A DNA stretch of 64,000 nt from Nitrospirota bacterium (GTDB taxonomy: Bacteria; Nitrospirota; UBA9217), in the NCBI GenBank assembly GCA_963790205.1, contig CAWBNQ010000003.1:896001-960000 (forward strand). Reading direction: 5' to 3'. This document shows, piece after piece, positions 8,582 to 43,801 of this stretch. The position numbers were made by a program, and so were the translations under genes. Below the pieces are notes generated by a model. That model ran no database searches, was not told the DNA's origin, and saw nothing but the letters and a program-made list of their open reading frames with translations. Positions within the stretch are counted from its first letter, which is position 1; every line of letters begins with the position of its first letter.

Positions 8582-8685
8582 GCTGTTATCCCTGTTCTTG
8601 GTATTATCCAGATCTCTTATCGCTGAGAAGCGCGAAGTGAAGAGCGGTTTAAATCCCGAACTATGTCAGCGTCCGCAGCTTCTCG

Positions 8686-14366: not shown

Positions 14367-14481
14367 AGTTCGTAGTCAGGAGTTCGTAGTCCAGAGCCCG
14401 GAGTGCGGAGTCCGGAGCGCAGGGTCGTTCGCAGCGCAGCATAGGGTTTTACTACGAACTCCAGCTCTACACTCCCAACTG
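14367..14481. repeat. Intergenic heptamer repeats with an inverted counterpart
   Basis: agttcgt agtcagg agttcgt agtccag agcccgg agtgcgg agtccgg ... actacga actccag ctctac actccca act. Confidence 0.65.
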
Positions 14482-14484
14482 TAT

Positions 14485-15527: not shown

Positions 15528-15560
15528 GGTTGTTCTCTCCATTTTTGGTTGATACGTGCG

Positions 15561-15612
15561 GTCATTCCGGGTTTGCAAGCCTGCTCTGCAGGAGTAACGC
15601 AGCGGGAATGAC
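15561..15612. repeat. REP-like palindromic element GTCATTCC...GGAATGAC
   Basis: Terminal inverted repeat (9 of 10 bases match) in the intergenic space. Confidence 0.6.
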
Positions 15613-15638
15613 GAATAAAATGACTTACACTTCGTATT

Positions 15639-17509: not shown

Positions 17510-18666
17510 TTCCTCTGGAACAGGTCGGCCATGGCCGCGATCACCCGGTCCTGGTCCGCGTCGGTCATTACCGGGAAGAGCGGCAGGCTCACGATGCGGT
17601 CGGAAATGGTCTCGGCATTCGGAAAATCGCCGCGTTTGAAGCCGAAGTGTTCGCGGTAGTAGGGATAGAGATGGACGGCCCGGTAGTGGAGGCCGGTCCC
17701 GATGTTGCGCTCTTTCATCCCCTGCATGAAAGCGTCCCGGTCCATGCCCGCGGCATCGGGATTGACGAGCGGCGTGTAGAGGTGCCAGGCATGGAGGTGC
17801 GAATAGGCCGGGGCCGCGGGCAGCGATACCTGGGGCCAGCCGGCAAGGAGCTTCTGGTAGCGGAGGGCGAGCTCGGTGCGTCGCTTGATGAAACCGTCGA
17901 GTTGTTTCAGCTGATGGAGCCCGAGCGCCGCCTGGATGTCCATCATATTGTACTTGTATCCCGGCGCGATGATCTCGTAGTGCTGGCTTCCCTTTTTGCC
18001 GAAGCGGTTCCAGGCCTCGCGGTCCATGCCGTGGAACCGCAGGAGCGCCACCGCCTCCGCCATCTTGTCGTCGCGGGTGACCACGCAGCCGCCTTCGCCG
18101 GTCGTCATGTTCTTGTTGGGGTGGAAGCTGAAGACCTGGACGTCGCCGAAGCTCCCGATGCGTTGCCCCTTGTACTCCGTGCCGATGGCGTGCGCCGCGT
18201 CCTCGATCACGCGGAGGTTGTGCTTCTTCGCAATGTCGTACAGCGGGTCAAGGTCCACGGGAAGGCCCGCAAAGTGCACGGGCATGATCGCGCGGGTGTG
18301 TTTGGTGATCGCCTTTTCGAGCTTTGCCACATCCATATTATAGGTGCCCGGCTCGACGTCGACGAGCACGGGCTTGCCGCCCGTGAGCACGATCGTGTTC
18401 AGGGTCGCGGCAAAGGTCATCGGCGTGGTGATCACCTCGTCACCGGGCTTGAGCTCAAGCGCGGCCAGCACCAGGTGCAGCCCCGCCGTGGCCGACGAGA
18501 GCGCCAGGGCGTGGGGGGCCTGGCAGTAGGCCTTGAGGTCGTCCTCGAACTGCTTGACCCGGGGGCCGGTGGTTATCCATCCGGACTTGAGGCACGCCAC
18601 GACCTCGTCAATGGCGTCCTGGCTGATGGACGGCCGGGAAAAGGGGAGAAATTCTTCGTTCGACAT
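17506..18666 (-). CDS. arnB: UDP-4-amino-4-deoxy-L-arabinose aminotransferase (DegT/DnrJ family)
   Basis: FLPFSRP, SGWITTGP, EDAAHA, FSFHPNKNMTTGEGG, PGYKYN, GTGLHY. Confidence 0.92.
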   Translation of the reverse strand: MSNEEFLPFSRPSISQDAIDEVVACLKSGWITTGPRVKQFEDDLKAYCQAPHALALSSATAGLHLVLAALELKPGDEVITTPMTFAATLNTIVLTGGKPVLVDVEPGTYNMDVAKLEKAITKHTRAIMPVHFAGLPVDLDPLYDIAKKHNLRVIEDAAHAIGTEYKGQRIGSFGDVQVFSFHPNKNMTTGEGGCVVTRDDKMAEAVALLRFHGMDREAWNRFGKKGSQHYEIIAPGYKYNMMDIQAALGLHQLKQLDGFIKRRTELALRYQKLLAGWPQVSLPAAPAYSHLHAWHLYTPLVNPDAAGMDRDAFMQGMKERNIGTGLHYRAVHLYPYYREHFGFKRGDFPNAETISDRIVSLPLFPVMTDADQDRVIAAMADLFQRK

Positions 18667-18721
18667 TTGGCATCCTCGTTATTAATTAATAAAAAATAAG
18701 TAGAAAAAAATCTAAGGCATC

Positions 18722-18799
18722 TCTCGCAAAGGGCGCCAAGAACGCCAAGAAAACCGATGCTTGATTTAAAACCTTTGCGACCTTTGCGCCTTGGCGAGA
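18722..18799. repeat. Intergenic 9-mer repeats forming an inverted pair
   Basis: tctcgcaaagggcgccaagaacgccaag ... ctttgcgacctttgcgccttggcgaga. Confidence 0.7.
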
Positions 18800-18816
18800 A
18801 AAATGCTTTGTATTTC

Positions 18817-19182
18817 TCAGCTTTTCGTCACAAAATACACTCCCACGCAGATGATCAGGATCCCGGTGATGCGCGAGAGGGAAAGGTTCTCCTGGAACAG
18901 GTAGTACCCCGCCACGGCGTTCACGATGTATCCCACGGAGAGCAGGGGATAGGCGAAGCTCACCTCGACGCGGGACAGGACCAAAAGCCAGACCGCGACG
19001 CTGACCACGTAGCAGGCCAGGCCGCCCAGGATGAAGAAGTTCCCGGCGACCTGTACGGCGATGGGGAAGAAGTTGGCCCAGACAAACTCGAAGTGGCCGA
19101 TCCGGCGCATGCCTTCTTTCAGGAACAGCTGGGCCGCGGCATTCAGCATGACGCCGAGCATGATGAGGGGAAGATAGCTCAT
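18817..19182 (-). CDS. ArnE/ArnF-like SMR/EamA flippase subunit
   Basis: 121 aa, 4 TMs, LSRVEVSFAYPLLS; inside the arn operon. Confidence 0.85.
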   Translation of the reverse strand: MSYLPLIMLGVMLNAAAQLFLKEGMRRIGHFEFVWANFFPIAVQVAGNFFILGGLACYVVSVAVWLLVLSRVEVSFAYPLLSVGYIVNAVAGYYLFQENLSLSRITGILIICVGVYFVTKS

Positions 19183-20861
19183 TGTTTGACCTCTTTGTTG
19201 GAAAGCACGATATTATTTTCGTCCCGCATGACCGGATACAGTTTGACGTGCGGATTCAAGGTCCTCACAATGTCATAGTTCTTAACTTCCATCAGCAGGT
19301 ATATCGTCTCCGGGCCCATCCAGCGTTTCCAGAACGCGGCCGAGTCCATCATCCAGGCTTTCGTATCTTCAACCTCGGTCCCGAAATCGAGCTCGCCCTT
19401 CCAGTCCACGACGATGATGCGCCGCTCAAGGTAGACCGGCAGGTCCTGGTAATAGTCCAGATAACTGGCGACCTCATCGCCGGGTTTGAGCATCGGCTTG
19501 AGGCTGACAGCCAGCGTCTTGATCGATTTGGTATCGATACGGGGGGCGGCCGCATTCAGTTCGATCAGGAACAGCGCGGCAAAGATCGCCACCACTATGA
19601 AGGCAAAACGAATGCCCCGAAAACGGGCCAGGGCCCCGGTAAGCGCGGCCCCGACCAGGAGGGTGCATCCCGCGGCGGCGGGATAAAGACCGAGGGCCCG
19701 CACATCAGGTGTTCGCCAGACGAACGGCAGGGCGAGCATGGCTGCGCCGAGAAGGACCTGAGCAACGAGGAGCATAGCATACCCTGCCCGGATGCCAGGG
19801 AATTCGCGGCTGTCCCAGGCATCGCTGAAGTACCTGCCGATCAACAGGGCGAGCGCCGGAAAGACCGGCAGGATATAGGGCACCAGCTTCGAATCCGAGG
19901 CGGAGAAAAAGAGGAACACCAACCCTGCCCAGAGAATGAGGAAGAGCGCGTCGCGATGTTCATGCCGTTCGCGCCAGCTCGACGGGAGACTGTGCTTGAT
20001 CGCCTGGACCAGAAAGGCGCTCCAGGGGAAGAGGCCGAGGAGTATGACGGGAATAAAGAACCAGGGAGGCTGATACCGGCTGTGCATGGTGGTCAAATAC
20101 CGCAAAAAGTGCTCCTGGATGAAATAAAAATGGAAAAACTCGGGGTTGGTCCGCATGACCATGACATGCCACGGCGCCGCGATCAGCAGGAACAACGCCA
20201 GGCCCGTGGGGAGATACATGGTCTTGAGCACGCGCCATTCCCCGAGGATCATGATCCAGGCGCCGATGATCATGCCCGGGATGAATATGCCGATCAGTCC
20301 TTTGGCCAGGACCGCCAGTGCTGAAAAAGCGTAGAAGCTCCAGAGGTAGAGCCTGCGCCGGGGGCCGGGCACTTCGTGCATGCCGACGAGAAAGGAGAGG
20401 AGCGCCGCGGTGAGCAGGACCGAGACCGGCATGTCCAGGATGATCGCGCGGCCCAGGCCGTAGTAGAGCAGGTTGGTGGCAAGCACCACTGCGGCAATCA
20501 AGCCGCTCCGCCGCCCGTACAGCCGTCTTCCGGCGCCGTAAACGGCAAGGCACCCGAAGAGGGCGAACAACGCGGGCCAGAGCCGGAGGGTGAACTCCCG
20601 GAGGCCGAACAGCTTGATCGAGAAGCTCTCGAGCCAGTAGAACAGCACCGGTTTTTCAAAGTATTTGACGCCGTTGAGGCGCGGGGTGATGTAGTCTCCC
20701 GTGCTTACCATTTCGCGGGGGATTTCGACGTAGCGGCCTTCATCGGGCACGGACAGGGCGCGGTTCCCGAGCATGAAGGCGAAGAACATGCCGATCAGGA
20801 TGGAGAGCACGAGGACGTCGAGTAAAACCTGCCGGCTATTTTGTTTATTGTCCGTTTTCAT
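19179..20861 (-). CDS. arnT: Lipid A L-Ara4N transferase (GT39/GT83 type)
   Basis: PDEGRYVEIPREM, YFEKPVLFYW, LAKG, SKLVPYILP; many TMs. Confidence 0.9.
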   Translation of the reverse strand: MKTDNKQNSRQVLLDVLVLSILIGMFFAFMLGNRALSVPDEGRYVEIPREMVSTGDYITPRLNGVKYFEKPVLFYWLESFSIKLFGLREFTLRLWPALFALFGCLAVYGAGRRLYGRRSGLIAAVVLATNLLYYGLGRAIILDMPVSVLLTAALLSFLVGMHEVPGPRRRLYLWSFYAFSALAVLAKGLIGIFIPGMIIGAWIMILGEWRVLKTMYLPTGLALFLLIAAPWHVMVMRTNPEFFHFYFIQEHFLRYLTTMHSRYQPPWFFIPVILLGLFPWSAFLVQAIKHSLPSSWRERHEHRDALFLILWAGLVFLFFSASDSKLVPYILPVFPALALLIGRYFSDAWDSREFPGIRAGYAMLLVAQVLLGAAMLALPFVWRTPDVRALGLYPAAAGCTLLVGAALTGALARFRGIRFAFIVVAIFAALFLIELNAAAPRIDTKSIKTLAVSLKPMLKPGDEVASYLDYYQDLPVYLERRIIVVDWKGELDFGTEVEDTKAWMMDSAAFWKRWMGPETIYLLMEVKNYDIVRTLNPHVKLYPVMRDENNIVLSNKEVKQ

Positions 20862-21255
20862 GAATTCCGGAGTGAGCGCATTCCCCGCGGATGCCTATAC
20901 GAACCTTCACTTGCTGCGGGGAGCCTCAATAATCTTTCCGCGGGTAATCTTGAGAAGCGTAGCCGGGGGGTCGATACGAGGATATATCGCCTTTTCTCCG
21001 GCCGTTTTATCGTGATGACCGAGCTTTTGTTATGGTTTTGAAAGGAAGATTCTACATCGCATGGTGCGGTTTGTCAAACATTTTATCTTTGTGCTCAATG
21101 GGTTGCCAAGTGTGCGCGGCATCCCCGGAGGGGGAGGGAGGACACAGAGGAAGTTACCCCATACCTTCAAAATCTTTTCTGTGCGCTTTGCGGTTCATTC
21201 TTGACATTACGAGGGGCAAAGGGGAGAGCGGCGCGCGGGCGATGTCCTGCCTCAT

Positions 21256-21939
21256 TCAGCGTTGCGGCGTTTTGCGCGCGGCCTCGCAGGCCATATGGCG
21301 GATGACCTTCCCCTTGACCATGTACACGACCATTTCGGCGATGTTGGTGGCGTGGTCGGCGATGCGCTCCAGGTACTTTGCGATATAGGTGAGGCGCACG
21401 GCGCGGGCAATGTTCTTGGGGTCTTTGAGCATATAGAGCAGCAGCTCGTTGAAGATCTGCTGGTTCAGGTTGTCCACGAAGTCATCGCTTTCGCAGACCC
21501 GGAGGGCGAGGTCCGCGTCCTTTGCCACGAAGGCATCGAGGCTGTCCTTCAGCATCTTTTGCGCCGCCTCGGCCATGCGGGGGATGTCGATGTAGGGCTT
21601 GAGCGGCGGCTCGTCGAGCATTTCCACGGCGCGTTCGCAGGTGTCCACGGCCATGTCGCCTATGCGTTCGATATCGGTGATGATCTTGATGGCGGTCGTC
21701 ACGAAGCGGAGGTTGCTGCCCGTCGGCTGCCAGAGGGCCAGAAAACGGATGCACAGCTCCTCGATCTCGACGTCGAAATTATTGACAATGGCGTCGCCGT
21801 CGATCACGGCGATCGCAAGTTCCCGGTCGCGCTCGACAAGGGCTTTGATGGACTTCCGGATGGCGTCCTCGACGAAGCCACCCATTTTGAGGATCTGTTC
21901 TTTTATATTTTCAAGGTCCTGTTCTTTCTGAGCGGGCAT
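21256..21939 (-). CDS. phoU: Phosphate signalling complex protein PhoU
   Basis: Two PhoU repeats (DIERIGDMA, YLERIADHATNIAE); follows pstB. Confidence 0.95.
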   Translation of the reverse strand: MPAQKEQDLENIKEQILKMGGFVEDAIRKSIKALVERDRELAIAVIDGDAIVNNFDVEIEELCIRFLALWQPTGSNLRFVTTAIKIITDIERIGDMAVDTCERAVEMLDEPPLKPYIDIPRMAEAAQKMLKDSLDAFVAKDADLALRVCESDDFVDNLNQQIFNELLLYMLKDPKNIARAVRLTYIAKYLERIADHATNIAEMVVYMVKGKVIRHMACEAARKTPQR

Positions 21940-21967
21940 GGGGTTCTCCTTTAAGATAGTCGAAAAC

Positions 21968-22020
21968 AGTCAGCAGTCATCAGTCGGCAGTCAAAGACTA
22001 TCGACCGCGGACTATCGACT
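21968..22020. repeat. Intergenic heptamer repeats with an inverted counterpart
   Basis: cagtcag cagtcat cagtcgg cagtc aaa gactatc gaccgcg gactatc gact. Confidence 0.65.
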
Positions 22021-22023
22021 GGT

Positions 22024-22788
22024 TTATCCGAATCGACCGGTTATGTAATCGTCGGTCTGTTTTTTGTCGGGATTCGTGAAGATCTTCTCCGTGGTCCCGT
22101 ATTCGATGAGTTCTCCCAGGTAGAGAAAGCCCGTCATGTCCGACACGCGCGCCGCCTGCTGCATGTTGTGCGTCACGATGATGATGGTAATGTCCTTCTT
22201 CAGGCCCGCGACAAGCTCCTCGATCTTCGCCGTTGAAATGGGGTCGAGCGCGGAGGTGGGCTCGTCGAAGAGCAGCACCTCGGGGTCAACGGCCAGGGCG
22301 CGGGCGATGACGAGCCGCTGCTGCTGTCCGCCGGAGAGATCATAGGCGCTGGCGTTCAGCTTGTCCCTGACCTCCTCCCAGAGCGCCGCGTGCTTCAGCG
22401 CCTGTTCGATGCGGCCTACCAGCTCGGATTTGTTCCTGATGCCCTTCAGCCGGAGGCCATAGGCAATGTTTTCGGCGATGGACATGGGGAAGGGCGTCGG
22501 CTTCTGGAACACCATGCCGATGCGGCTCCTGAGATTGATAAGGTCAATGTCGCTTGCCAGGATGTTCTTGTCCTGAAAGAGTATTTCTCCTCCATACCGG
22601 TGGTTGGGGTACAGATCGTGCATCCGGTTGAAGCAGCGGAGCAGCGTGGTCTTGCCGCAGCCCGAGGGGCCGATGAGCGCCGTGACGTTATTCTTGCCGA
22701 TCGGCAGAGATATCCCCCTGAGGGCATGGATGTTCCCGTTATAGTAAAAGTCCAGGCCCTTGACCTCGATCTCGATAGTTCCCGTCAA
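22024..22788 (-). CDS. pstB: Phosphate ABC transporter ATP-binding protein
   Basis: [44 protein letters not shown]. Confidence 0.97.
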
Positions 22789-23627
22789 CGCTTATACCTC
22801 CACCGGATGATGAGTCTCCCTGCGATCGTGAGCGCGAGTATGAACAGGGTGATCACGAACGATGCTCCCCACGCCTGTGAATGCCAGTTTTTGTAAGGGC
22901 CCATGGCATACTGAAAAATCGTGACCGTCAGCGACGCCATGGGACCGTTCATGTTTCCCGAGAAAAAATTGTTGTTGAACGACGTAAAAAGGAGCGGCGC
23001 GGTCTCGCCCGCAACGCGGGCGATCGAAAGCAGAATGCCGGTCAGGATGCCCGCGGCCGCGCCGCGGTACACGACCTGGATGATCACCTTATAGTACGGC
23101 GCGCCGAGCGCAAAGGCCGCTTCGCGCAGGGTCCAGGGCACGAGGGACAGCATGTTCTCCGTGGTCCGGAGCACCACGGGTATCATGATGATCGCGAGGG
23201 CGACCGCGCCCGACCAGCCGCTGAAATGATGGAGGGGCCGGACGAGGACCGCGTAAATAAAGGCGCCTATCACGATCGAGGGAACGCTGACCATGATGTC
23301 GGAAAGAACGCTGATGACCCGGCTGATCTTTGTCCCCCGCGCGTATTCGGCCAGGAACGTCCCCCCGAGCACGCCGACGGGAACCCCGATCAAGGTGGCG
23401 GCGCCGGTGATCATCAACTGGCCGACAAAGGCGTTTTTGAGCCCTCCGCCCTCGACGCCGGCGGGAGCGGGATCGTTGAAGAACAGATCCAGGTTGAGCG
23501 CTCCGATGCCGTGGATGAGGACGTCTGACAGGATGTAGACGAGCCAGAAGAGGCCGACCGCCGCGGCAAGACCGGAAAGGCTCAATGCGATGACGCTTTC
23601 TATTTTACGTTTCTGTTCGTAGGTCAT
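22785..23627 (-). CDS. pstA: Phosphate ABC transporter permease PstA
   Basis: [30 protein letters not shown]; start could be 23627 or 23648. Confidence 0.95.
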
Positions 23628-23644
23628 GATCGCAAACAAATTTA

Positions 23645-23812
23645 CCACAGAGGCACACCCTGCACTCGCGGTTCCATTCGTAAACGCTGGGCGCAGGCTG
23701 AGGCGCCGAGAAAATAATAAGCTCTTATGCTGAGAAACGTATGATACAAATATTCAGGTTCTTCCTTGATACTAAACTTGTTGCTTTGGAGTTACTCTCT
23801 GCGTCTCCGTGG
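23645..23812. repeat. Intergenic 9-mer-type inverted repeat element, apparently interrupted by a short insert
   Basis: ccacagaggcac...gaggcgccgaga ... ctctctgcgtctccgtgg. Confidence 0.45.
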
Positions 23813-23820
23813 CTGACGTG

Positions 23821-24762
23821 TCATCTTGAATATTTTCTCTCGGCCTTGAGAAGAAAGAACTTCGCCATCGCCAAAATGATGAAGCTCATCACGAACAGCA
23901 CGAGCGCCAGATAATAGAGAGAGGAAAGATAGAGCGCGCTGTCCGCTTCCGTGAATTCATTGGCAAGGCTGACCGTAATGGTGGAGGCCGCGTCAAAAAG
24001 CGACGTGGCGATCTTGTGGTTGTTCCCGAGCACGAAGGCCACCGCCATGGTCTCACCCAGCGCCCGCCCCAGGGACAGGGCCGCGCCGCCGAACACGCCG
24101 AGCTTTGAGTAGGGGAGGACGACGTTCTTGACCACTTCCCACTTTGTTGCGCCGACGGCGTAGGCCGACTCCTTGACCACGGCGGGGGTGAGATTAAACG
24201 CGTCGCGCGCGATGCTCGCCGTGAACGGAATAACCATAATGGCGAGAATGACGCTTGCCGTCAGCAGGTCGATGCCCATGGGAGTGCCCTTAAACAGGAT
24301 GCCGACGAGGGGCAGTTTCCCGATGGTGCCCTGGAGCGCAGGTTCGATGTACTGCGACATGATGGGCGCCAGGGTGAATAGTCCCCACATGCCGTAAATG
24401 ATGCTCGGGATAGCGGCCAAAAGCTCGATAGCGACCCCGATGGGGCCTTTGAGGAAATTCGGCGCGATCTCGGTGACGAACACGGCTATGCCTATGGCAA
24501 TGGGTATGGCGAAGACCAGGGCAAGTGCGGTTGTGACAAAGGTGCCGTAAATCGTGGTCGCCGCCCCGAAGATGCCCGTCACGGGGTTCCAGGCCGTGGA
24601 GGTCAGAAACCGTACAAGCCCGAACTTCCCTATCGCGAGTGAAGACTCCTTCAAAAGCACTGCTATGATGCCGATGATAAAAATGACGACGGTAAAGGAC
24701 GCGACCGCGGTAAGGGAGGAAAAAAGCAGCTCAGGGATGTTTTTCCTGAAAGATATGGCCAA
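23821..24762 (-). CDS. pstC: Phosphate ABC transporter permease PstC
   Basis: ELLAAIPSIIYGMWG, ESAYAVGATKWE, LGRALGETMAV. Confidence 0.95.
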   Translation of the reverse strand: MAISFRKNIPELLFSSLTAVASFTVVIFIIGIIAVLLKESSLAIGKFGLVRFLTSTAWNPVTGIFGAATTIYGTFVTTALALVFAIPIAIGIAVFVTEIAPNFLKGPIGVAIELLAAIPSIIYGMWGLFTLAPIMSQYIEPALQGTIGKLPLVGILFKGTPMGIDLLTASVILAIMVIPFTASIARDAFNLTPAVVKESAYAVGATKWEVVKNVVLPYSKLGVFGGAALSLGRALGETMAVAFVLGNNHKIATSLFDAASTITVSLANEFTEADSALYLSSLYYLALVLFVMSFIILAMAKFFLLKAERKYSR

Positions 24763-24872
24763 AGCACGGACCTTTCTGCTCTAAAGAAGGATGAAGAGAA
24801 ATGCAACGGGTCAGATATGAGCAGTATATATACCTGACCCGTTGATTTCAACTGTTTTTTTACGCCGCTGTG

Positions 24873-25883
24873 TTAATACTTGATGCCGTGCGACTTCCAG
24901 TAAGCGCGGATTTTGTCTTTCAGCGATTTCGGGAGAGGAACATAGATGAGCTCCTCCGCCTTTTTGTCGCCGTTGGTAAACGCCCAGTTGTAGAACTTGG
25001 TCACCTTCATGTTCGAGTCCTGCTTTTCCTTGCCGAGCAGGATGAACGTGGCGCCGGCGATGGGCCAGGCCTTCTTGCCCGGAGCATTATTCAGCCAGAG
25101 GTAGAAGTCCTTTTTCGGGTCGAAGCTCGCCGTTGCAGCCGCGTCCTCGAAGGTCTTGAAGCTCGGCGCCACGAACGCGCCCGCATGGTTCTTGAGGAGC
25201 GTGTAGGTCAGGTTGTTCTGCTGCGCATAGGCGAACTCCACGTAGCCGATGGAGTTTTTCTGCTGCTGCACATAGTTGGCAACGCCCTCGTTCCCTTTGC
25301 CTCCTATTCCCGCGGGCCAGCTCACGGAGGTGCCGGTGCCGACCTTCTCTTTCCAGGCAGGGCAGACATCGTTCAGGTAGCCGGTGAAGATGGCGGTCGT
25401 CCCGGACCCGTCGGAGCGATGGACCACCGTGATGTCGCTGTCCGGGAGGTTGACTTTGGGGTTCAGCCCCTTGATCTTCGGGTCGCTCCACTTTGTGATC
25501 TCACCCAGGTACATTTTGCAGACCGCTTCGGAATCGAGTCTCAGCTCTCCCGCTTTTATACCGGGAATATTGACGACCAGAACGACGCCGCCCATCACCG
25601 CCGGGAACTGGAGCAGATTGTTTTTTGCCAGGAACTCGGGCGTTTGGGGCGCGTCGGATGCGCCGAAGTCGACCGTCCGCTCCGTGATCTGCTTGATGCC
25701 GCCGCCTGAACCGATGGACTGGTAGTTCAGCTTCACGCCGGTGATCTTGTTGTACTCGTTGGCCCACGCGGAATAAACGGGATACGGGAACGTGGCGCCT
25801 GCGCCGTTCAACATCTCCTCCGCGAGAGCTGTTGTTGCCAGGGCCAGTACGGCGATTAATGCTAGTGCTGCGATTTTTTTCAT
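24873..25883 (-). CDS. pstS: Phosphate ABC transporter substrate-binding protein
   Basis: Signal peptide, GAGATFPYP, YQSIGSGGG, DFGASD, HRSDGSGTT, GKGNEGV. Confidence 0.97.
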   Translation of the reverse strand: MKKIAALALIAVLALATTALAEEMLNGAGATFPYPVYSAWANEYNKITGVKLNYQSIGSGGGIKQITERTVDFGASDAPQTPEFLAKNNLLQFPAVMGGVVLVVNIPGIKAGELRLDSEAVCKMYLGEITKWSDPKIKGLNPKVNLPDSDITVVHRSDGSGTTAIFTGYLNDVCPAWKEKVGTGTSVSWPAGIGGKGNEGVANYVQQQKNSIGYVEFAYAQQNNLTYTLLKNHAGAFVAPSFKTFEDAAATASFDPKKDFYLWLNNAPGKKAWPIAGATFILLGKEKQDSNMKVTKFYNWAFTNGDKKAEELIYVPLPKSLKDKIRAYWKSHGIKY

Positions 25884-37109: not shown

Positions 37110-38501
37110 TCATATCGGCAACAGTTTCAGATTAAATCCCCGCTCGATAAGCCAGGTAAAACCCAGCATGAAAATAACCAACGACACTCCGAAGGTCACT
37201 TTTCTGAATTCGATCTTATTTTTCAAAAGGTGCAAGACAGGCAGCATGATCAGGAATATTATTACTTGTCCGAGCTCCACGCCCAGGTTGAAGGAAACTA
37301 CCGATACGAGGAGGTTTGCTTTTCCGGCAATCAACTCCTGGAGAACGCTCGCGAAGCCGAAGCCGTGGACCAGCCCGAAGACAAAAGTCACGAGCCAGCG
37401 ATAATTCACTTTTTTCTTGAACAGGTTTTCAAGTGCGACGAAACAAATGGAAAAAGCTATTACCGATTCCACCACCCTGGAGTTCAAACTGACGACCTGC
37501 ATTGCCGCCAGGAGCAGGGTAATGCTATGCGCTATGGTAAACGCGGTTATTATCTTCAGAACTTCCTTGATAGACAGGCCGATCACAATGAGCGCCAGCA
37601 GAAATGTTATATGATCATATCCTGTCAGAATATGCTCGATGCCGAGCACTATGAATTCTCTTATATTTGCCCATAGAGACCTTTTTGCAGGGTTAAGTGA
37701 TAGAGAACCGTTCTCATTACCTTCGGGAGGGGGTTTGCTCGCAGAATCTGCCGATGGGGTGAACATCTCAGTAGGCAAGTTTTTCATGCCGCCGTTCAGC
37801 GCTTTTGTTTTTTTATTCAGCGGAACTCTTGCAGTATTTTTTCGTACTGCGGTATCCTTAATGCTGTCTGAACTGCCGCTTACAACGGTATTTCCGGTTT
37901 TGTGCCCTTCAGCAGGCACAGATGCAGGACCGTTAACGGAGAATTCCCATACCGGCGCGTTATGATCAAAAGTGGTCTGCATCGCAGGCGGGGAAAAATC
38001 AAAAACTTTTTGCAGGGCGTCTCCGGTAGCATCGGACAAATATCCATAGGCGAGGTTCACGTGCGCATTGTTCGTCTCTTCAAACAATAAGGTGTAATCG
38101 ATCTTGACCGGGTTTACAGGGTCATTAAAGCTGATATCATCTGCTGACAGCCATATGGTATATATGTTGCCGTTTCTGACTACCTTGTTTACCTTTACAG
38201 GATACGTTTTGCCATCGACTGTTATGGAAAGTTTTTTGTCTATATAAGGCTGCAGGATATCGGCTCCAATGTGCTGCAGTTGCTCATCGGAAAGTGCATC
38301 AGGGTCATAATGTCCTTCCTTTATTCCTTTTATTTCGGCCAATAAGGACGGGCCAAGATCTATGTTGCCGATAATAGTGTTTTTGCCAAAACACCACCTG
38401 GAGCCGCCCATGGGCAGGTTGTGAGCAGAAACAGGAACAGTGATTAAAAGGAATAAACCTGTTATGACGAATAAAAATAATTTTCTGAATGGCATAAACA
38501 C
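37110..38501 (-). CDS. HupE/UreJ-family membrane protein with a large periplasmic N-domain
   Basis: Signal peptide ending VSA-H; GIEHILTGYDH, AFTIAHSITL, FGLVHGFGFA, FNLGVELGQ. Confidence 0.88.
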   Translation of the reverse strand: MFMPFRKLFLFVITGLFLLITVPVSAHNLPMGGSRWCFGKNTIIGNIDLGPSLLAEIKGIKEGHYDPDALSDEQLQHIGADILQPYIDKKLSITVDGKTYPVKVNKVVRNGNIYTIWLSADDISFNDPVNPVKIDYTLLFEETNNAHVNLAYGYLSDATGDALQKVFDFSPPAMQTTFDHNAPVWEFSVNGPASVPAEGHKTGNTVVSGSSDSIKDTAVRKNTARVPLNKKTKALNGGMKNLPTEMFTPSADSASKPPPEGNENGSLSLNPAKRSLWANIREFIVLGIEHILTGYDHITFLLALIVIGLSIKEVLKIITAFTIAHSITLLLAAMQVVSLNSRVVESVIAFSICFVALENLFKKKVNYRWLVTFVFGLVHGFGFASVLQELIAGKANLLVSVVSFNLGVELGQVIIFLIMLPVLHLLKNKIEFRKVTFGVSLVIFMLGFTWLIERGFNLKLLPI

Positions 38502-38523
38502 AAAAAGGCCTCCTTTTCAGCTC

Positions 38524-39141
38524 CTAAGAGTCGATTCCCGAATTCAGGACACGGCCTTCCTCGGATGATAACGAAACGTGCTTCTCTTTGGCCCGCAGGA
38601 ACACGATCAGGCTGGATACGGCCAGTAAAAAGCTTAACATACTCATAGGCGGCAAGCCTCCATTCCACTTCTGGACATTCAGCGTATCCTTGTAGCCCAT
38701 CGCAAAAAGATGGCCGGCGACGAAGGTACACGCCAGGACCGTCAGCGTCCGTCGAACGGCCGGCTTTATTCCGGTCGCGTGCAGGCGCCAGAAACAATAG
38801 ACAGCCAGCACTCCCATAAGCAGCACCAGTTCTCCGGTCAGGCTCATCTTATCGCCGTCAAAGAAATTGGCGTAATAACCCTGCGAGAGGATCCCGAGCG
38901 ACAGAAAGATGTGGACGAACACCAGCTGCGAACACGCGTTGGTCCAGAAACGGACCTTGTCCTGCTCCGCGTGCATGAAGCCGAGGGACGCCATAAGCAG
39001 CGACTCTACCGCTGTCATGCATATCGCTTTGTTCATTATATAGACCGGCAGGTGAATGAGAGCAACATGGCCGAACCCGGCATACCGAATGACCGCGTAC
39101 ACAAGCGTAAACAGAAATGCTGTCAGAAATTGTTTGACCAT
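38524..39141 (-). CDS. Multi-TM protein resembling the STEAP/ferric-reductase TM domain
   Basis: About 6 TMs; HLPVYIMNKA, VHIFLS, GHLFAMG..W..GLPP; by-eye similarity only. Confidence 0.55.
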   Translation of the reverse strand: MVKQFLTAFLFTLVYAVIRYAGFGHVALIHLPVYIMNKAICMTAVESLLMASLGFMHAEQDKVRFWTNACSQLVFVHIFLSLGILSQGYYANFFDGDKMSLTGELVLLMGVLAVYCFWRLHATGIKPAVRRTLTVLACTFVAGHLFAMGYKDTLNVQKWNGGLPPMSMLSFLLAVSSLIVFLRAKEKHVSLSSEEGRVLNSGIDS

Positions 39142-39144
39142 TCT

Positions 39145-40332
39145 TCAGTCCTCCTTGGTTTGTCGTTTTTCTAAGATCTCCGGTGACGCCGCCGCGTCCA
39201 CGAACGGGCACTCCGGATCGGAAGCGTAGAAGTCGCCGTCGACGAACCCGGCCACGGCGCGGCAGCCTCCCTTGCAGATCTCGAGATAATCGCACGACCG
39301 GCAGGGCTCCGGGGCCCGGTCGGTCCAACTGCGCAAGCGAGAGAGATGTTCCGAACCGCTCCACAGCCGGGGCAGTTTGAAAATGCTCTCCTCACCGGAT
39401 AAGAAGGAACAGCCCGCAAACCTGCCGTCCGAGCGGACCCCCAGCAGGACGTTGCCGGCCTCGCAGCCGTAGGCTGAGAACTGTTCCATCATATTTTTGT
39501 CCGGCCTGTGCCAGCAGAACATCGGGACAAAGGAGCAGTCGATCTTGGCCGGGACTCCGTATTCCATGGAGAGGCGCCTGATCGTCGGATAGAATTCCCG
39601 GTTCTGCAGCGGCGTTAATCGCCTTTCGAAATAGTCCAGCATTCCCCGTCCCGAGGGCTTCAGCCTCAGGAACTCCACATCGGCAAGTCTCCGCTCCCCG
39701 GCAAAGACAAACACCCCGGGCAAATGATCGAAGCTCTGACGGGTCACGACACAGTTCAGACCGACGTTGACGCCCGCCTTCAGAAGCATATCCATACCCC
39801 GTATTGCCGCTGCGAGAGCAGCGGAACTCCGCCCGGCTACCTCGAAACCCGCAGTGCCATCGATGCTGACGTTGACCTGGCCGAAAATTCGGCACTTTGC
39901 AGCGGTCTCTCTGGTCATCAGGAGCCCGTTGGTGGTCAGGTTCGGAACGATGCCGCGGGCGCGCACATAAGCGGCCAACTCAAAAAAGTCGGGGCGCTCC
40001 AGCGCCTCTCCGCCTCCCAGTGCCATATGGAACACACCCATCCCGGCCAGGAGGTCGACGGCCTTGCGAAACTCTTCAGACGACAGCTCTCGCGCATCTC
40101 TTTCCCCTGAATCCATATAGCAGTGCCCGCACCGGAGGGAACAGGCATTGGTCACCGAAAAATGGACTTCCAGCGGAGCGGAGAGAAGAGCTGTTTCCGG
40201 CATTTCCCACAACGGGCTGTGCTCATGGACCAGGCGGCGCATAAAGTCCCGGTCCACGTGCACCAGCATCGGAGGATTTTCCAGGGCCAGGATCCCTCCA
40301 AACGATTCAAACCGATACTTCATAACGCTCAT
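39145..40332 (-). CDS. Radical SAM protein with SPASM domain
   Basis: CSLRCGHC, GGGE, TTNG, VSIDG; SPASM cysteines GCEAG..GCSF..CRSCDYLEICKGGC..DPECP. Confidence 0.92.
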   Translation of the reverse strand: MSVMKYRFESFGGILALENPPMLVHVDRDFMRRLVHEHSPLWEMPETALLSAPLEVHFSVTNACSLRCGHCYMDSGERDARELSSEEFRKAVDLLAGMGVFHMALGGGEALERPDFFELAAYVRARGIVPNLTTNGLLMTRETAAKCRIFGQVNVSIDGTAGFEVAGRSSAALAAAIRGMDMLLKAGVNVGLNCVVTRQSFDHLPGVFVFAGERRLADVEFLRLKPSGRGMLDYFERRLTPLQNREFYPTIRRLSMEYGVPAKIDCSFVPMFCWHRPDKNMMEQFSAYGCEAGNVLLGVRSDGRFAGCSFLSGEESIFKLPRLWSGSEHLSRLRSWTDRAPEPCRSCDYLEICKGGCRAVAGFVDGDFYASDPECPFVDAAASPEILEKRQTKED

Positions 40333-40544
40333 CCCTTCTCTTCCCCCTGACTGAGTACGGGCATTTCTTTTAATTCTTCCGGTCGCCCGTGCTCATGGAC
40401 CTTTGCCGCGCTAAGGACCGCAGCAAGAGTGTTGAAAAGGACCGTCATGGCCGCTCCAGCGGTGAAGAAGGCTATTACATCTACGCCGATACTGCTTGAG
40501 TTCGGGTTGTAGCCGGTCTTGATCTTCAGAATTCGTCCTTTCAT
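40329..40544 (-). CDS. Small membrane-anchored peptide with a GYNPNSSS motif, putative radical SAM substrate
   Basis: 71 aa: basic N-terminus KGRILKIKTGYNPNSSSIG, hydrophobic helix, charged tail; stop overlaps the rSAM ATG. Confidence 0.75.
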   Translation of the reverse strand: MKGRILKIKTGYNPNSSSIGVDVIAFFTAGAAMTVLFNTLAAVLSAAKVHEHGRPEELKEMPVLSQGEEKG

Positions 40545-40636
40545 TTCCCTGCCTTCCTGCTTGGTTTTCTCTTTGTCACGACAGCTTTGCAGATCCTTTC
40601 CTTGTTCTCTCCTGGATAAAGTGTCCGCTGGTCCAT
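40541..40636 (-). CDS. Putative 31-aa basic ORF (MDQRTLYPGENKERICKAVVTKRKPSRKAGK)
   Basis: TAATG overlap with the upstream stop and ATGA overlap with the downstream start. Confidence 0.35.
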   Translation of the reverse strand: MDQRTLYPGENKERICKAVVTKRKPSRKAGK

Positions 40637-41763
40637 TACGGAAGCCTCCCTTCTTCGGCCCAGCGCTGATACTGGGCAGAAAAGACGTCTATGATCTGAG
40701 GTCCGTTCGGCTGGTGGATAATGAAGAGGTAGAAGACGGCCGTAGTCATCAACAGGGTGAGGACAGGACTGAGCCAGCGCAGAGCTCGAGGCCGGGTCTG
40801 CCAGAACTCCCCCCTTGTCAGAAGCAACAGCCAGAAGAGGGTTGTCAGGTTGAGGCCGGCCGCGATGTAGACCACAGTGTCAGGGATTATGATTGGATAG
40901 CCCGTGGTCTCCATGGAATAGAAAGTCGGCATTCTGATTGCGGTCAGCAGCACCCAGAGGAGAACCAATATCAGAAAAGTCCTGATCGAGGCCTGGGTAA
41001 GCCGCTTCCAGGGTTTCATCAGCAGGGCGGCAGCCCAGAGCATGACTACGACTCCCCACGCGACCCATCCCCAGGCCGATGTTTCTTTCCAGTAGCGGCT
41101 GGCCGTTTCGTAGGCCTCCTGGTCGCTTGTGGAGAGTTTTTTCCCGCCGTTCCCTGAAAGGGCCTCAAAGGCGAGATAGCTTTGCCTGCGCTTGTCCATG
41201 CGAGCATAGGCATATCCCAGTTCCCTCTGGACCTCTGCCTTCAAAAGAAAATCAGGGTGGTCCTTCAGCAACGCTTCGAACTTCTTCACCATGATTTCAT
41301 CGCCCTGATCGGCGAACAGAATCGCCTGATAGGTCTTGAAGGCCGCCTCCTGCTGTATCAGTTTTTCGAGGGAGGCCAGCTTCTCCTGGTAAAAGGAAAC
41401 CTGCCGGGGGGAGGCGTATTTCTCCAGATATTTCCGATCCCACTTGATCGCCTTCTTTATATCGACAATGTTGTCTTCATACAGGGTCCCCAGCATCTGC
41501 ACGGCGTAGCGGGCCGCCTCGCTTTCAGGATGCTTCCCGGCGATTTCCAGGTCGATGGCAGCTGCGTCGGCATAGCGGCCGTTGATATAGGCATGCTGGG
41601 CCTTTTGCCTCAGCTCGTTCACTGCCGGGCTGTCCTGGGCCGCAAATCCGGCGATCGGCAGCAAGAACAGGCCCCCAAAGAGCGTAAGAATAAGCAATGG
41701 AATGAGCTTGGTGCGCCTGATGGCGACAAGCTTTAGCACCAGCTTGTCCGTTATGGTTGCCAT
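40636..41763 (-). CDS. Exported TPR-like protein with C-terminal TM helices
   Basis: Signal/TM N-terminus, helical TPR-like repeats, about 4 C-terminal TMs; GGAGG RBS. Confidence 0.75.
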   Translation of the reverse strand: MATITDKLVLKLVAIRRTKLIPLLILTLFGGLFLLPIAGFAAQDSPAVNELRQKAQHAYINGRYADAAAIDLEIAGKHPESEAARYAVQMLGTLYEDNIVDIKKAIKWDRKYLEKYASPRQVSFYQEKLASLEKLIQQEAAFKTYQAILFADQGDEIMVKKFEALLKDHPDFLLKAEVQRELGYAYARMDKRRQSYLAFEALSGNGGKKLSTSDQEAYETASRYWKETSAWGWVAWGVVVMLWAAALLMKPWKRLTQASIRTFLILVLLWVLLTAIRMPTFYSMETTGYPIIIPDTVVYIAAGLNLTTLFWLLLLTRGEFWQTRPRALRWLSPVLTLLMTTAVFYLFIIHQPNGPQIIDVFSAQYQRWAEEGRLP

Positions 41764-41791
41764 TTATAGCCTCCGCCATTTTTAGCACTAC

Positions 41792-41846
41792 ATGATACTC
41801 CCTTATTTATTACGTTAATATTACATGGATGTTATATTTTCGTTAC
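41792..41846 (-). promoter_or_regulatory. Pho-box-like array plus -10 box (radical SAM operon)
   Basis: ATTAC 41809, ATTAC 41820, GTTAT 41831, GTTAC 41842; -10 TATCAT at 41797-41792. Confidence 0.72.
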
Positions 41847-41874
41847 AATGGAAAAAAACCGCCACGGAAATGAA

Positions 41875-41897
41875 ACCGGGGGCCGAAGGCCCCCGGT
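41875..41897 (-). terminator. Intrinsic terminator after the phosphatase gene
   Basis: ACCGGGGGCC-gaa-GGCCCCCGGT perfect stem with a T-rich tail on the - strand. Confidence 0.7.
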
Positions 41898-41930
41898 CTG
41901 CAGACATAATTACTGCAATTTTTTCTCCTA

Positions 41931-42296
41931 TTCCTGCAATGTCACAGGGGCAAAAGGTAAGGCTGGTATTATTCGAATTAATGCTTTCAGTGGTCCGATT
42001 CATGCTGAACTGCAGCGGAATGACGATCTCGTCACCGGCTGCCAGGCCGTTGGCCGTAGCCCTTATCATCGGTTCGCCATTGTTCGAGCCGGTTGCATTG
42101 AGGCCGATGTTCTGGTTCCTGCAATACCACAGGCGTAAAGGTGATTTCGGTGTTATTCGGGTTGCTGAACGAGAGCGGAACGACAATCGAGTCCCCCGCG
42201 TCCAACCCGGTATGCTTAACCCTTATCATCGGTTCGCCATTATTCGAACCGGTCGCATTGACCAGCGTGACGTCCGTGATGAGGCCGGTGTTCTGG
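41931..42296. repeat. Diverged tandem duplication of the phosphatase 3' end (41931-42115 and 42116-42296)
   Basis: Both copies encode NATGSNNGEPMIR..GL.AGD.IV.PL.FS..NNT..TF.PV.LQE. Confidence 0.85.
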
Positions 42297-43801
42297 GCGA
42301 TCTTTGAGACAAGTTGCGGGGTGGTGGTGCTGTATTCGTTATCTGCGCTGCCGATTCCCTGGAGGTTGACAATACCGTCCAGGACAACGTGGATATTACC
42401 GGTAAGAGCTGGGCCGTTATTCGTGATCTCCAGGTTGCATCTGTACAGCTTGGTCGTAGGATTGTAGGTCATGTGGGTGGTTTTTACGCCGACCTGCGAT
42501 GAGACGTCGGTGAAGTGATTGAGAACGATCGTCTCGATCGGTGAAAGGGTCAGCGCCGACGACGGCTGAATCGCCGTTGTGCTCGCGTTGTTGACCTGGT
42601 AGGCGGTCATGGTGAGGGTCTTTCCTTCTACGTCAAAGGTCATGAACTCCATGGCCGGCCAGGCGGTGATGACGTGCGGAAAATTGCCCATATTGGTCAT
42701 GTCGGGCTGATAAACAGGCGCGCCGCCGCCGCCGCTGGTGATGTGCGGGACATTCAGGGCAATCTGGTCTCCGTTTGCCTGGGCGAGGGTATAAGCCCCG
42801 GTGCGGGCATAGTTGTGGCTGTGGCCGGCATAGACCAGGTCCACATTATACTGGGTAATGAGAGGTTCAAGTGCCCTCACTTTGAGGTTGTCGCCGTCTT
42901 TGCCTGCGGAATACGACGGCTCGTGGTACACGAGTATCTTCCACGGCTTGGTGGTCGTGGCGAGGTCGTTGACAAGCCAGTTGTACTGGTCGGAGCCGGG
43001 AGCAAAGCTTGAGTACTCGTCAACAACGGTGAAGTGGACCGGGCCGTAATCGAAGGACCAGTAGAGGTTATTGTAATAAGGATTGCCGCTGGCATCTGTT
43101 GTAGGAGCAGCTGTTTTAGAAGTCATATTCGTGTACGGAAAGGGAAAGTACTTCGGGAAAGTGGCGCTATACCCTGAAGCGTTATCATGGTTGCCCTTGC
43201 ACCCGTCGATGGGCGAATTCGCCGTGAACGTGACGATGTCCGTCTTGGTCGGGTCGAACCACTGGGAGGTCCAGTAGCTTTCGCCGTCGGTGCTTACCCA
43301 GTCACCGTTGTGAATAGTAAGGCGCTGATAATCCTCGTTGCCGGGCTGTGAATAGAAGGAGCGCATCGCCTGCATGACGTTATCCAGGGCAAACGGTTGG
43401 CTTCTTGAGTCTCCCATGGCGAGGAACCGTATCGAAGTGGCATTGTCCTCGGGCGCGGTAATGAACGATCCGGTGCCGTAGACGGCGCTGCTGGTCTGGT
43501 CAGCCACATGGTAGTAGTATTTCGTATTCGGCGTCAGTCCGGTGATCGTGTACCCGTGCTGCCGGTCGCCGAACTCGGGCGCCGTTACCGTCCCCATGCT
43601 GAAGATCGTGTCGGTGCCCCAGCTGACGATGTTCGTCTCGCCTGCGGTGTCGTCCTGCCAGACCACCTCCATCTGTGTATTCTGCCCCGGGTAGATCAGG
43701 TAGGGATGTTTCAGAATGCCGGCGAAAGCCGCCGTGCTGAACACGGCAAAGGCCAGCACAAAAACTAAACCGGTCAAAGCTTTTTTCGTCATGGTATTCA
43801 T
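42032..43801 (-). CDS. Secreted purple-acid-phosphatase-like metallophosphoesterase (FN3 plus calcineurin-like domain)
   Basis: AGGAGA RBS before ATG 43801; signal peptide; GLTPNTKYYY; MGDSR, NGDW, GNHD, YHEP, GHSHNY. Confidence 0.88.
   Translation of the reverse strand: MNTMTKKALTGLVFVLAFAVFSTAAFAGILKHPYLIYPGQNTQMEVVWQDDTAGETNIVSWGTDTIFSMGTVTAPEFGDRQHGYTITGLTPNTKYYYHVADQTSSAVYGTGSFITAPEDNATSIRFLAMGDSRSQPFALDNVMQAMRSFYSQPGNEDYQRLTIHNGDWVSTDGESYWTSQWFDPTKTDIVTFTANSPIDGCKGNHDNASGYSATFPKYFPFPYTNMTSKTAAPTTDASGNPYYNNLYWSFDYGPVHFTVVDEYSSFAPGSDQYNWLVNDLATTTKPWKILVYHEPSYSAGKDGDNLKVRALEPLITQYNVDLVYAGHSHNYARTGAYTLAQANGDQIALNVPHITSGGGGAPVYQPDMTNMGNFPHVITAWPAMEFMTFDVEGKTLTMTAYQVNNASTTAIQPSSALTLSPIETIVLNHFTDVSSQVGVKTTHMTYNPTTKLYRCNLEITNNGPALTGNIHVVLDGIVNLQGIGSADNEYSTTTPQLVSKIAQNTGLITDVTLVNATGSNNGEPMIRVKHTGLDAGDSIVVPLSFSNPNNTEITFTPVVLQEPEHRPQCNRLEQWRTDDKGYGQRPGSR

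Follow-up and report, generated by a model that had tools for sequence, protein, structure and literature searches.

A radical SAM/SPASM enzyme and a membrane microprotein with a conserved GYNPNSSS motif as a likely enzyme-substrate pair

Several described systems place a radical SAM/SPASM enzyme beside a tiny conserved peptide, as is the case for mycofactocin (MftC/MftA/MftB) and PQQ (PqqE/PqqA/PqqD). The locus examined here resembled them in this respect, but its RRE was fused to the enzyme, the peptide core lay near the N-terminus and was followed by a helix, and there were no downstream tailoring genes. A closer likeness was found to SuiB/SuiA (PDB 5v1s and 5v1t), which has the same combination of RRE, radical SAM, and SPASM parts and which matched the fold of the whole enzyme model, including the N-terminal sheet. 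The SuiB leader is described as sitting in the barrel (PMC8326336). The two enzymes showed 17-18% identity, the RRE of our enzyme was shorter, and, unlike SuiA, our putative substrate was a membrane helix without a KxxxW motif and without an exporter. The anSME/AtsB enzymes were similar in that our enzyme likewise has enough cysteines for two fully ligated auxiliary clusters, and they served as the model for the lead chemistry discussed below; anSME is described as targeting the Ser C-beta (PMC8326336). However, anSME has no RRE, and the match was lower (E 2e-13; Z 24). Sulfatase-type anSME substrates carry the motif C/S-x-P-x-R. Neither this motif nor a sulfatase was found here or among the neighboring genes, a result that does not test the Ser-oxidation chemistry itself.

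The window was a 64,000-nucleotide stretch of a Nitrospirota genome (contig CAWBNQ010000003.1). The initial annotation had described a compact five-gene unit behind a repeat array, and the coordinates bore this out: the five genes all lay on the minus strand, the stop codon of the 71-aa peptide overlapped the start of the radical SAM gene as ATGA, and the array of 11-bp repeats was real. The features were as follows.

37110-38501, minus strand: HupE/UreJ_2 protein with an exported N-terminal domain and a membrane domain; accessory.
38524-39141, minus strand: polytopic membrane protein of 205 aa with conserved His30/77/144; accessory.
39145-40332, minus strand: radical SAM/SPASM enzyme of 395 aa with a short RRE-like N-terminus.
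40329-40544, minus strand: membrane microprotein of 71 aa; likely substrate.
40636-41763, minus strand: TPR/TM protein of 375 aa with an exported TPR domain and four C-terminal TM helices (TPR-4TM).
41804-41847, minus strand: Pho-box-like array of four direct repeats with an 11-bp period, which begins 84 nt ahead of the TPR gene.
42032-43801, minus strand: exported metallophosphoesterase just upstream, with a purple-acid-phosphatase N-terminal domain (PF00149, PF16656).

The microprotein consisted of a leader strand (residues 3-11), the YNPNSSS core (residues 12-18), a TM helix (residues 19-37), which was its single hydrophobic segment by hydropathy, and a variable tail. We found 297 homologues in many phyla, and the GYNPNSSS motif was near-invariant in the family. 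Over 135 DNA copies, the third position of every motif codon was variable, which indicated that the constraint acts on the protein. Together with the number of homologues and the zero Rfam matches in the window, this result argued that the peptide is not a chance ORF. Among the motif carriers, which made up 146/148 distant representatives, N13, N15, and S16 were unchanged, S17 was conserved in 99%, and the helix was retained in 144/146. The Tyr12 position was aromatic in 138/146 bacterial representatives and was Leu, Val, Met, or Ser in the other 8; at locus L336, a peptide with Thr at this position directly preceded an intact enzyme. Cysteine was absent from the peptide and from the conserved columns of the family; with no Cys in the core, a sacti- or ranthipeptide identity was rejected.

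As the initial annotation had stated, the peptide belonged to no named precursor family: Pfam, NCBIfam, PHROG, and PADLOC gave no match, and the Atlas gave no usable one. A literature search with several spellings of the motif found no paper on it, although subscription papers or supplements might hold a genome-mining mention. Fused forms accounted for 2 matches among 8000 scored longer proteins, and one of these (P0262) resembled a spurious extension, which weakly suggested that the peptide stands alone as a separate protein. Lys/Arg values within 10 residues of the helix were 0.19 on the N-terminal side and 2.25 on the C-terminal side; over wider stretches, the values were 2.5 (20 N-terminal residues) and 3.2 (15 C-terminal residues), and the topology was less clear-cut. 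Family searches detected no peptidase or exporter in the five genes, in agreement with the earlier description, and none in the scanned recurring neighbor clusters. The product is likely to be retained in the membrane and not secreted as a RiPP, as first proposed; the cofactor and the metal-capture or redox role that were first suggested alongside are conjectural.

The enzyme carried the radical SAM motif CxxxCxxC at C64/68/71, and PF04055 scored above its cut-off. Eight more cysteines (C266, C290, C308, C344, C347, C353, C357, and C375) were invariant in 45/45 aligned relatives, and C344/347/353/357/375 fit the auxiliary motif CxxCx5Cx3Cx17C. The description of a full SPASM enzyme held for these cysteines but not for the Pfam SPASM model, which gave no match at E ≤ 0.01; on sequence grounds, the enzyme can be assigned to the radical SAM/SPASM superfamily. 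It fell below every NCBIfam cut-off shown and passed into no named family. The best-scoring NCBIfam model was MftC (TIGR03962; 158.5 versus a cut-off of 265), and PqqE (TIGR02109) reached 92 versus 381. PqqE was the best PDB sequence match. Scores for NirJ/AhbC/AhbD (TIGR04051, 04054, 04055, 04545, and 04546) were 112-131 bits versus cut-offs of 500-650, and the score for GeoRSP (TIGR04303) was 116 versus 400, with no separate PqqD-like gene at the window locus. These identities were rejected, and the enzyme stayed outside the small-molecule family NirJ/Ahb, as the initial reading required. A PqqD-like gene, labeled by inspection, was visible in loci L305-L317.

The AF2 model of the enzyme (pLDDT 91.8) had SuiB as its best structural match (Z 30.4, rmsd 3.4, 365 residues aligned). 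Its N-terminal three-stranded sheet (strands 5-9, 12-18, and 21-27) aligned with SuiB from residue 1, and only two short helices (28-33 and 40-43) preceded the core, compared to the three helices of a winged-helix RRE. The first ~45 residues are predicted to be RRE-like, which agrees with the early suggestion of an RRE fold in the N-terminal ~50 aa, and the peptide docked there in the complex model. The peptide-enzyme complex model scored 0.90, compared to 0.01 for the best of 3 controls; the mark for this score was reached by 116/157 solved and 2/215 mismatched pairs, counts that are only rough here. Runs agreed in at least 80% of contacts, and partner pLDDT was at least 76. Peptide residues 5-9 lay on enzyme residues 23-27 (strand 3 of the RRE-like sheet), a pose that matches the description of CteA on CteB (PMC8326336). 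The invariant core (residues 12-18) threaded into the barrel, so that contact was not made with the RRE alone. Tyr12 and Pro14 touched N131, G151, Q152, and N154, which, judged from contacts and not from distances, would put residues 15-17 nearer the SAM end. The complex model may have passed in part because it resembles RRE-peptide structures that are already solved. We consider it likely that the peptide is the substrate of the enzyme.

The genomic distribution of the two genes was examined in counts that include kin and hence are not independent. The peptide, the enzyme clade, and the TPR-4TM gene occurred in the identical 7/201 related genomes; the enzyme scored above 630 bits in those 7, and the next best score among the 201 genomes was 192. 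The enzyme was present in the fetched locus for 70/94 distinct peptides and was nearby for 31/38 peptides having at least 5.5 kb of flank on both sides. When 10 genomes were picked for a peptide without a nearby enzyme, 8 carried the enzyme elsewhere or in pieces, and G202 and G207 had the peptide with no clade enzyme found. These counts upheld the expectation that the motif is conserved and linked to one enzyme clade.

Adjacency to a TPR-4TM gene was also seen for 70/94 distinct peptides when FN3 matches in phosphoesterases were excluded, and in 16/17 two-peptide loci both peptides had a separate TPR-4TM gene within ~0.9 kb. The protein showed homology to the three remaining peptide-adjacent families and had a signal-like segment and four TM segments by hydropathy. 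It had no match in the family libraries, and a fold search with its model (pLDDT 81.9) returned generic TPR matches only, with the membrane part barely covered. We infer that the TPR-4TM protein is the cognate partner of the peptide. The metallophosphoesterase family occurred in 46/80 loci and stood beside 26/32 long-flank non-LGVD peptides. Thus, the steady partners of the peptide were the TPR-4TM protein (one per peptide) and the exported metallophosphoesterase, both of which the initial annotation had overlooked. In the LGVD subgroup, a TPR-4TM or phosphoesterase neighbor was found in 0/6 and only weak TPR matches were found genome-wide, so these partners were not universal.

The STEAP-like and HupE genes were present in 7/80 and 19/80 loci, respectively, and therefore neither was core. 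In the HupE/UreJ_2 protein, PF13795 matched residues 283-428 (E 6.8e-47), and a role in metal uptake is probable; the membrane tail of the phosphoesterase showed no detectable relationship to it. For the STEAP-like label of the 205-aa protein, the Atlas gave a lead (score 0.85; 19% of members with PF01794), but neither Pfam nor PDB profiles matched, and a ferric-reductase-like haem protein is a possible identity, as a lead only. The island also carried genes for phosphorus-free lipids. Two-peptide cassettes carried thioredoxin-like modules and redox modules that we take to be CcdA-like from their motifs.

The claim of a Pho-box-like promoter fared well, since the same array type preceded pstS and psiE, and Pho-type control of the gene island in this lineage is likely on this basis. 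In a scan of the 4.34-Mb genome with a matrix built from five relatives only, the top 7 arrays all lay in the window, among them this array and those of pstS and psiE, and several relatives had a conserved array ahead of the orthologous gene. A sigma-70 scan found no promoter at the array on the minus strand, and the terminators that were predicted did not exceed chance. Directly ahead of 20 c5 genes in two-peptide cassettes, the array was not detected (best score 9.5); thus, Pho control was evidenced only for the cassette type of the window.

A further link, also overlooked initially, was to phage proteins. The bacterial motif and the N-terminal tags of an unnamed phage system (phrog_7397/phrog_7293) had the common 12-residue register K-[IV]-[KR]-x-G-aromatic-x-x-N-S-S-S, and an NSSS tag lay within 5 kb at 72/80 phage radical SAM loci, where a single enzyme was surrounded by as many as 11 tagged proteins. 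Five motifs common to the bacterial and phage enzymes lined the modeled peptide site. In contrast to the microprotein, the phage tags head many soluble proteins and have VS or VT, not NP, as middle residues, and the phage enzymes mostly have one auxiliary cluster. The peptide had no profile match to phrog_7397, and the bacterial motif pattern matched 0 viral stretches. The phage enzyme profile ranked the bacterial clade first among non-members; however, the reverse profile favored GeoRSP/Ahb-like enzymes (127-174 bits) over the phage enzymes (L318 119, L144 65), so the ranking was one-sided. Bacterial and phage enzymes were not recovered as one clade in four trees, the later of which used 38-40 of 51-53 rows (others were dropped for speed or long branches), and a joint clade was not rejected (p-AU 0.36, 0.42, and, with Avap1-like rows, 0.26). 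The outgroups formed one side in 0/200 bootstrap trees.

The KpAvs2 operon has a small gene (Avap2) beside a radical SAM gene (Avap1), as in the window, and the available sections of its description report no modification (PMC11564622). Avap1-like enzymes differ in having no SPASM cysteines, the Avap2 partner is soluble, and the role is defence. The seven best scores of an Avap1-like enzyme in a 51-sequence set were the window enzyme clade, DUF6375 proteins start with M-K/R-I-W-x-G-Y and have a Ser where the peptide has Ser17, and at locus L318 the gene for an NSSS-tagged protein, that for a related enzyme, and Avs2 were consecutive. DUF6375 matched neither the peptide nor the L318 protein, PF19902 was absent from the genome, and Avs2 had no match in the three core genes of the window. 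By sequence, Avap1/Avap2 looks like a distant third branch of the motif-plus-enzyme pairing. The broader idea, that one radical SAM tagging chemistry on a 12-residue K-I-x-x-G-aromatic-x-x-N-S-S-S head has three uses (phosphate-scavenging envelope microproteins, phage protein arrays, and Avs2 accessory subunits), with the 71-residue peptide as the minimal substrate, is plausible but falls just short of an even chance.

The explanation of the whole locus that we favor, and regard as fairly probable, is that the enzyme modifies the NPNSSS core to give a retained, tagged helix that works with the TPR-4TM protein in a phosphate-scavenging envelope assembly. Leader residues 5-9 are predicted to pair with the third strand of the RRE-like sheet while residues 12-18 enter the barrel; a 5'-deoxyadenosyl radical would then abstract hydrogen within Asn15-Ser17, and an electron would be taken away by two auxiliary clusters whose ligands are all Cys. 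The modified helix would be kept in the membrane, probably working with the neighboring TPR-4TM protein. By analogy with anSME, the chemistry that we tentatively rank first is an oxidation that turns Ser16 or Ser17 into an aldehyde (formylglycine type), with a Tyr12-Asn15 cross-link in second place. The chances seem slightly better than even that the helix inserts with its modified head outside by the TPR domain and offers the exported phosphoesterase and the metal/redox helpers a reactive handle or a signal for assembly. The same pair could instead produce a cyclophane, in which a carbon cross-link from the aromatic residue to Asn (or Ser) makes the YNPN head a rigid TPR ligand. Dynobactin is reported to contain a Trp-x-x-Asn link. 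The best fold match, SuiB, is the streptide Lys-Trp cyclase and has a Cys that aligns with C266, the aromatic-x-x-Asn spacing is common to both tag families (aromatic in 138/146 bacterial and 254/254 phage members), and radical SAM cyclophane synthases work on 3-5-residue motifs (PMC11851443). The non-aromatic residues in 8/146 representatives and the Thr of L336 before an intact enzyme speak against this product, which would also leave the serine run without explanation, and we regard it as unlikely.

Other readings change the role of the peptide. The ranking of MftC and PqqE as best NCBIfam and PDB sequence matches, and the redox modules of two-peptide cassettes, would fit a precursor that is first modified and then excised to yield a small diffusible cofactor, in the manner of PQQ or mycofactocin, but no peptidase, oxidase, or tailoring enzyme recurred among the neighbor clusters, the helix is kept almost throughout the family, and two distinct peptides, each with a membrane partner, suit a retained subunit better; this reading is improbable. 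We give a similarly low probability to a peptide that anchors or regulates the enzyme while the real target is a small molecule, a lipid, or a different protein. An inhibitor or adaptor could dock in the same way, the phosphorus-free lipid genes share the island, and Avap2 is described as binding Avs2 and acting against one phage without Avap1 (PMC11564622); however, the invariant core filled the modeled barrel and not the RRE site alone, and many tagged proteins per phage enzyme suit substrates better. That the motif is a DNA/RNA element or chance ORF beside a haem or small-molecule enzyme (NirJ/Ahb) is very improbable. Those models did give scores, and one tree grouped the clade weakly (84/77) with GeoRSP/Ahb-like enzymes, but the enzyme clade was separate at 100/99 and Rfam gave no match, and the scores far under the cut-offs, together with the free variation at synonymous sites, largely refuted this reading.

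The favored reading, a retained and tagged membrane helix, presents a defined, unnamed enzyme-substrate pair in many phyla, for which two genes and a mass spectrometer would be enough for a test. A radical SAM product that stays on a membrane helix in 1:1 partnership with a TPR membrane protein is absent from the outcomes covered in the available sections of the reviewed literature. If the link to the phage tags and to Avap1/Avap2 is true, it bears on the roles of Avap1 and Avap2 in Avs2 defence, which are called unclear in the available sections of PMC11564622. It would also address a common unannotated phage motif and could yield a short, portable protein-modification tag. A comparable pairing of motif and enzyme in phage and anti-phage proteins suggests that such tagging is more widespread and represents a chemistry not described before.

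The initial annotation had described a closely packed five-gene unit in which the stop codon of the peptide gene overlaps the enzyme start, and the gene coordinates, all on the minus strand, bore out both points.

37110-41763, minus strand: cassette encoding, in order, a TPR-4TM protein (exported TPR domain plus four TM helices), the 71-aa peptide, the radical SAM enzyme, a 205-aa membrane protein, and a HupE/UreJ_2 protein

Only two of the five gene products matched Pfam families: the enzyme (PF04055) and, at the end of the unit, the HupE/UreJ_2 protein. The enzyme matched 61 NCBIfam models; it reached none of the cut-offs among the 25 matches listed, and its highest score was to MftC (158.5 versus a cut-off of 265). 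The 3' end of the phosphoesterase gene at window positions 41950-42250 looked tandemly duplicated (double matches), and its frame extended about 30 residues beyond the stop position of relatives. A G+C hairpin past the phosphoesterase stop (about 41865-41900, minus strand), for which a terminator scan made no call, was also present in loci L009-L012.

The peptide had 297 close homologues, whose first 20 residues were nearly invariant and whose source names were Nitrospirota, Geobacteraceae, and Syntrophobacter. A profile search identified 380 representatives at an E value of ≤0.001. The motif (YNPNSSS, residues 12-18) was conserved, being present in 146 of the 148 new representatives listed; the other two were truncated. 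In the 146 listed members, N13, N15, and S16 were conserved in 100%, S17 in 99%, S18 in 98%, and P14 in 97%, the Tyr12 position was aromatic in 138, and a hydrophobic helix followed the motif in 144. All third codon positions of the motif were variable across 135 DNA copies. A genome scan located the peptide in at least 129 stretches, and the matches listed included Myxococcota, Planctomycetota, Desulfobacterota, Nitrospirota, Bacteroidota, Spirochaetota, Fibrobacterota, Acidobacteriota, Elusimicrobiota, Clostridia, and others. The Ser16 codon was TCN in 134 of the 135 copies (loci L015-L143; the search pattern permitted both Ser codon families), and both families were used at Ser17 and Ser18.

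Of 201 related genomes, 7 had the peptide, and exactly those 7 also had the enzyme clade and the TPR-4TM gene, a count that left out one weak peptide match (E value of 0.004, within a long ORF) and one weak TPR match (E value of 4e-11). The enzyme cluster was found in 58 of 80 fetched loci, and 70 of 94 peptides had the enzyme in the fetched locus (31 of 38 where the flanks were long). Co-occurrence of the motif with this clade was found. When we chose 10 genomes for having no enzyme near the peptide, the enzyme was located elsewhere in 8 (in one case, in two pieces) and was not found in G202 or G207. In locus L013, a ~4-kb insert with a TonB-receptor-like gene (5012-8973) separated the peptide from the enzyme.

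Two locus layouts dominated.

Layout of the window's type: phosphoesterase, TPR-4TM, peptide, enzyme, HupE
Second layout: FN3/TPR-TM, peptide 1, thioredoxin-like, phosphoesterase (CxxC plus membrane tail), peptide 2, TPR-TM, enzyme, DUF2950-like

The four membrane families adjoining peptides were homologous (hhalign 88-99% in five of six pairs). One of them lay within 1.1 kb of 29 of the 32 long-flank peptides outside the LGVD peptide subgroup, and 16 of 17 two-peptide loci had a separate membrane partner for each peptide. No such TPR-4TM-type partner was nearby in the LGVD subgroup (0/6), so the minimal unit is the enzyme plus the peptide. LGVD-type peptides were downstream of TRAP-T (TatT, DctP) genes in L017, L018, L020, L021, and L053, and their enzyme was separate, elsewhere in most of these genomes. 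In L082 (6089-8380) and relatives, a phosphoesterase with seemingly changed metal motifs (GDND) was joined to a CxxC domain and to a membrane tail, which carried two conserved Cys and looked CcdA-like from its motifs. In 11 loci, the FN3/TPR gene and peptide 1 flanked a conserved lipoprotein-like gene with no Pfam match (cluster c13; L024, 6079-6891, and relatives).

The enzyme model (pLDDT of 91.8) most resembled SuiB, with the alignment beginning at residue 1; the N-terminus, with its three strands, was RRE-like in the model, as had been suspected. All eight auxiliary Cys were invariant and would suffice for two fully ligated clusters. A modelled complex of the enzyme, peptide, SAM, and three clusters scored 0.90 (best control, 0.01). 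Among solved pairs, 116 of 157 attained the mark, as did 2 of 215 mismatched ones, counts that are only a rough guide for this complex. Contact agreement between runs was at least 80%, with a partner pLDDT of 76 or more. Enzyme residues 23-27 paired with peptide residues 5-9 in the modelled pose, and Tyr12 and Pro14 contacted N131, G151, Q152, and N154. The model supports binding of the peptide by the enzyme. The pair would act in the manner of an RRE-dependent RiPP maturase and its substrate, yet it falls outside every named family compared.

A similar system was found in phages. A viral scan for an NSSS phage motif gave at least 154 stretches. The tags were frequently arrayed (up to 11 tagged genes) and used both Ser codon families at every Ser. 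On 33 of 58 contigs, the 5 kb fetched also contained a related enzyme. In the reverse search, a tag was present at 72 of the 80 best enzyme loci (shuffles, 0-1/80) and at 47 of 52 on contigs not used before. Anchoring on the leader only placed N-S-S next in 201 of 202 tags, and phage tags and bacterial peptides shared the register K-[IV]-[KR]-x-G-aromatic-x-x-N-S-S-S. The phage enzyme profile scored 85 bits against the window enzyme and 33 against the next enzyme of the same genome. Over the 201 genomes, with scoring limited to 10 candidates in each, the seven clade enzymes ranked immediately below one true member, L318, in which a tag gene was upstream of the enzyme and Avs2 was downstream. 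The order at L318 (146-3985) was HNH-domain gene, NSSS-tag gene, radical SAM gene, and Avs2, and the radical SAM gene had sequence features intermediate between the bacterial and phage clades. Five enzyme motifs, picked post hoc from the alignment, were present in 40-45 of 45 clade, 24-26 of 26 phage (KP.G, 8/26), and 0-1 of 20 outgroup enzymes, and mapped to the modelled interface. Trees set the bacterial and phage clades apart with weak support and did not reject a common clade. One study describes Avap2 (DUF6375) as a binder of KpAvs2 and the radical SAM protein Avap1 as required against some phages (PMC11564622). Two DUF6375 loci had a similar head, Ser at the Ser17 position, and an adjacent radical SAM gene; these two loci provide a lead that DUF6375/Avap1 may be a third branch of the tag system.

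The Pho-box-like array ahead of the cassette was borne out by an array scan. Its four repeats had an 11-bp period and started 84 nt upstream of the TPR gene. When a matrix derived from five relatives, with the window left out, was scanned over the 4.34-Mb genome, all seven top-ranked arrays were inside the window.

Seven top arrays: upstream of the TPR gene, pstS, the porin, the PHP/glycosyltransferase/ornithine-lipid operon, the pentapeptide/phosphoesterase pair, and psiE, plus one more site
21256-25883: pstSCAB-phoU
13455-62348: compact phosphate-starvation island holding all seven arrays; members are pstSCAB-phoU, psiE, the porin, phosphoesterases, an OlsF-like ornithine lipid synthase, an HpnI-like glycosyltransferase, and an LPG-synthase-TM gene

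Because the TPR gene shared top arrays with pstS, psiE, and other window operons, the cassette is likely to be under Pho control. Array scores were 28-29 in three relatives outside the matrix set (L057, L061, and L079) and below 3 in 6 of 16 orthologous upstream regions; none of the 20 c5 (a neighbour cluster) upstream regions of two-peptide cassettes exceeded 9.5. Within 13455-22623, pstB and the arn-like genes for lipid A modification looked short or fragmented (partial Pfam coverage), possibly through frameshifts or assembly errors.

We propose that the enzyme carries out a radical oxidation within the Asn15-Ser17 stretch. By analogy with anSME, which oxidizes Ser to an aldehyde, a Ser aldehyde would be the most likely product; an aromatic-Asn cross-link is the main rival. 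The modified peptide would stay in the membrane, and its head would likely be on the outer side. K/R residues within 10 residues of the helix numbered 0.19 on the N-side versus 2.25 on the C-side (2.5 versus 3.2 in wider windows). As the weakest step, the modified peptide might serve an envelope assembly built around the exported phosphoesterase. The motif was absent from the literature searched, in which the motif-enzyme system is undescribed; the system is real and is open to direct testing.
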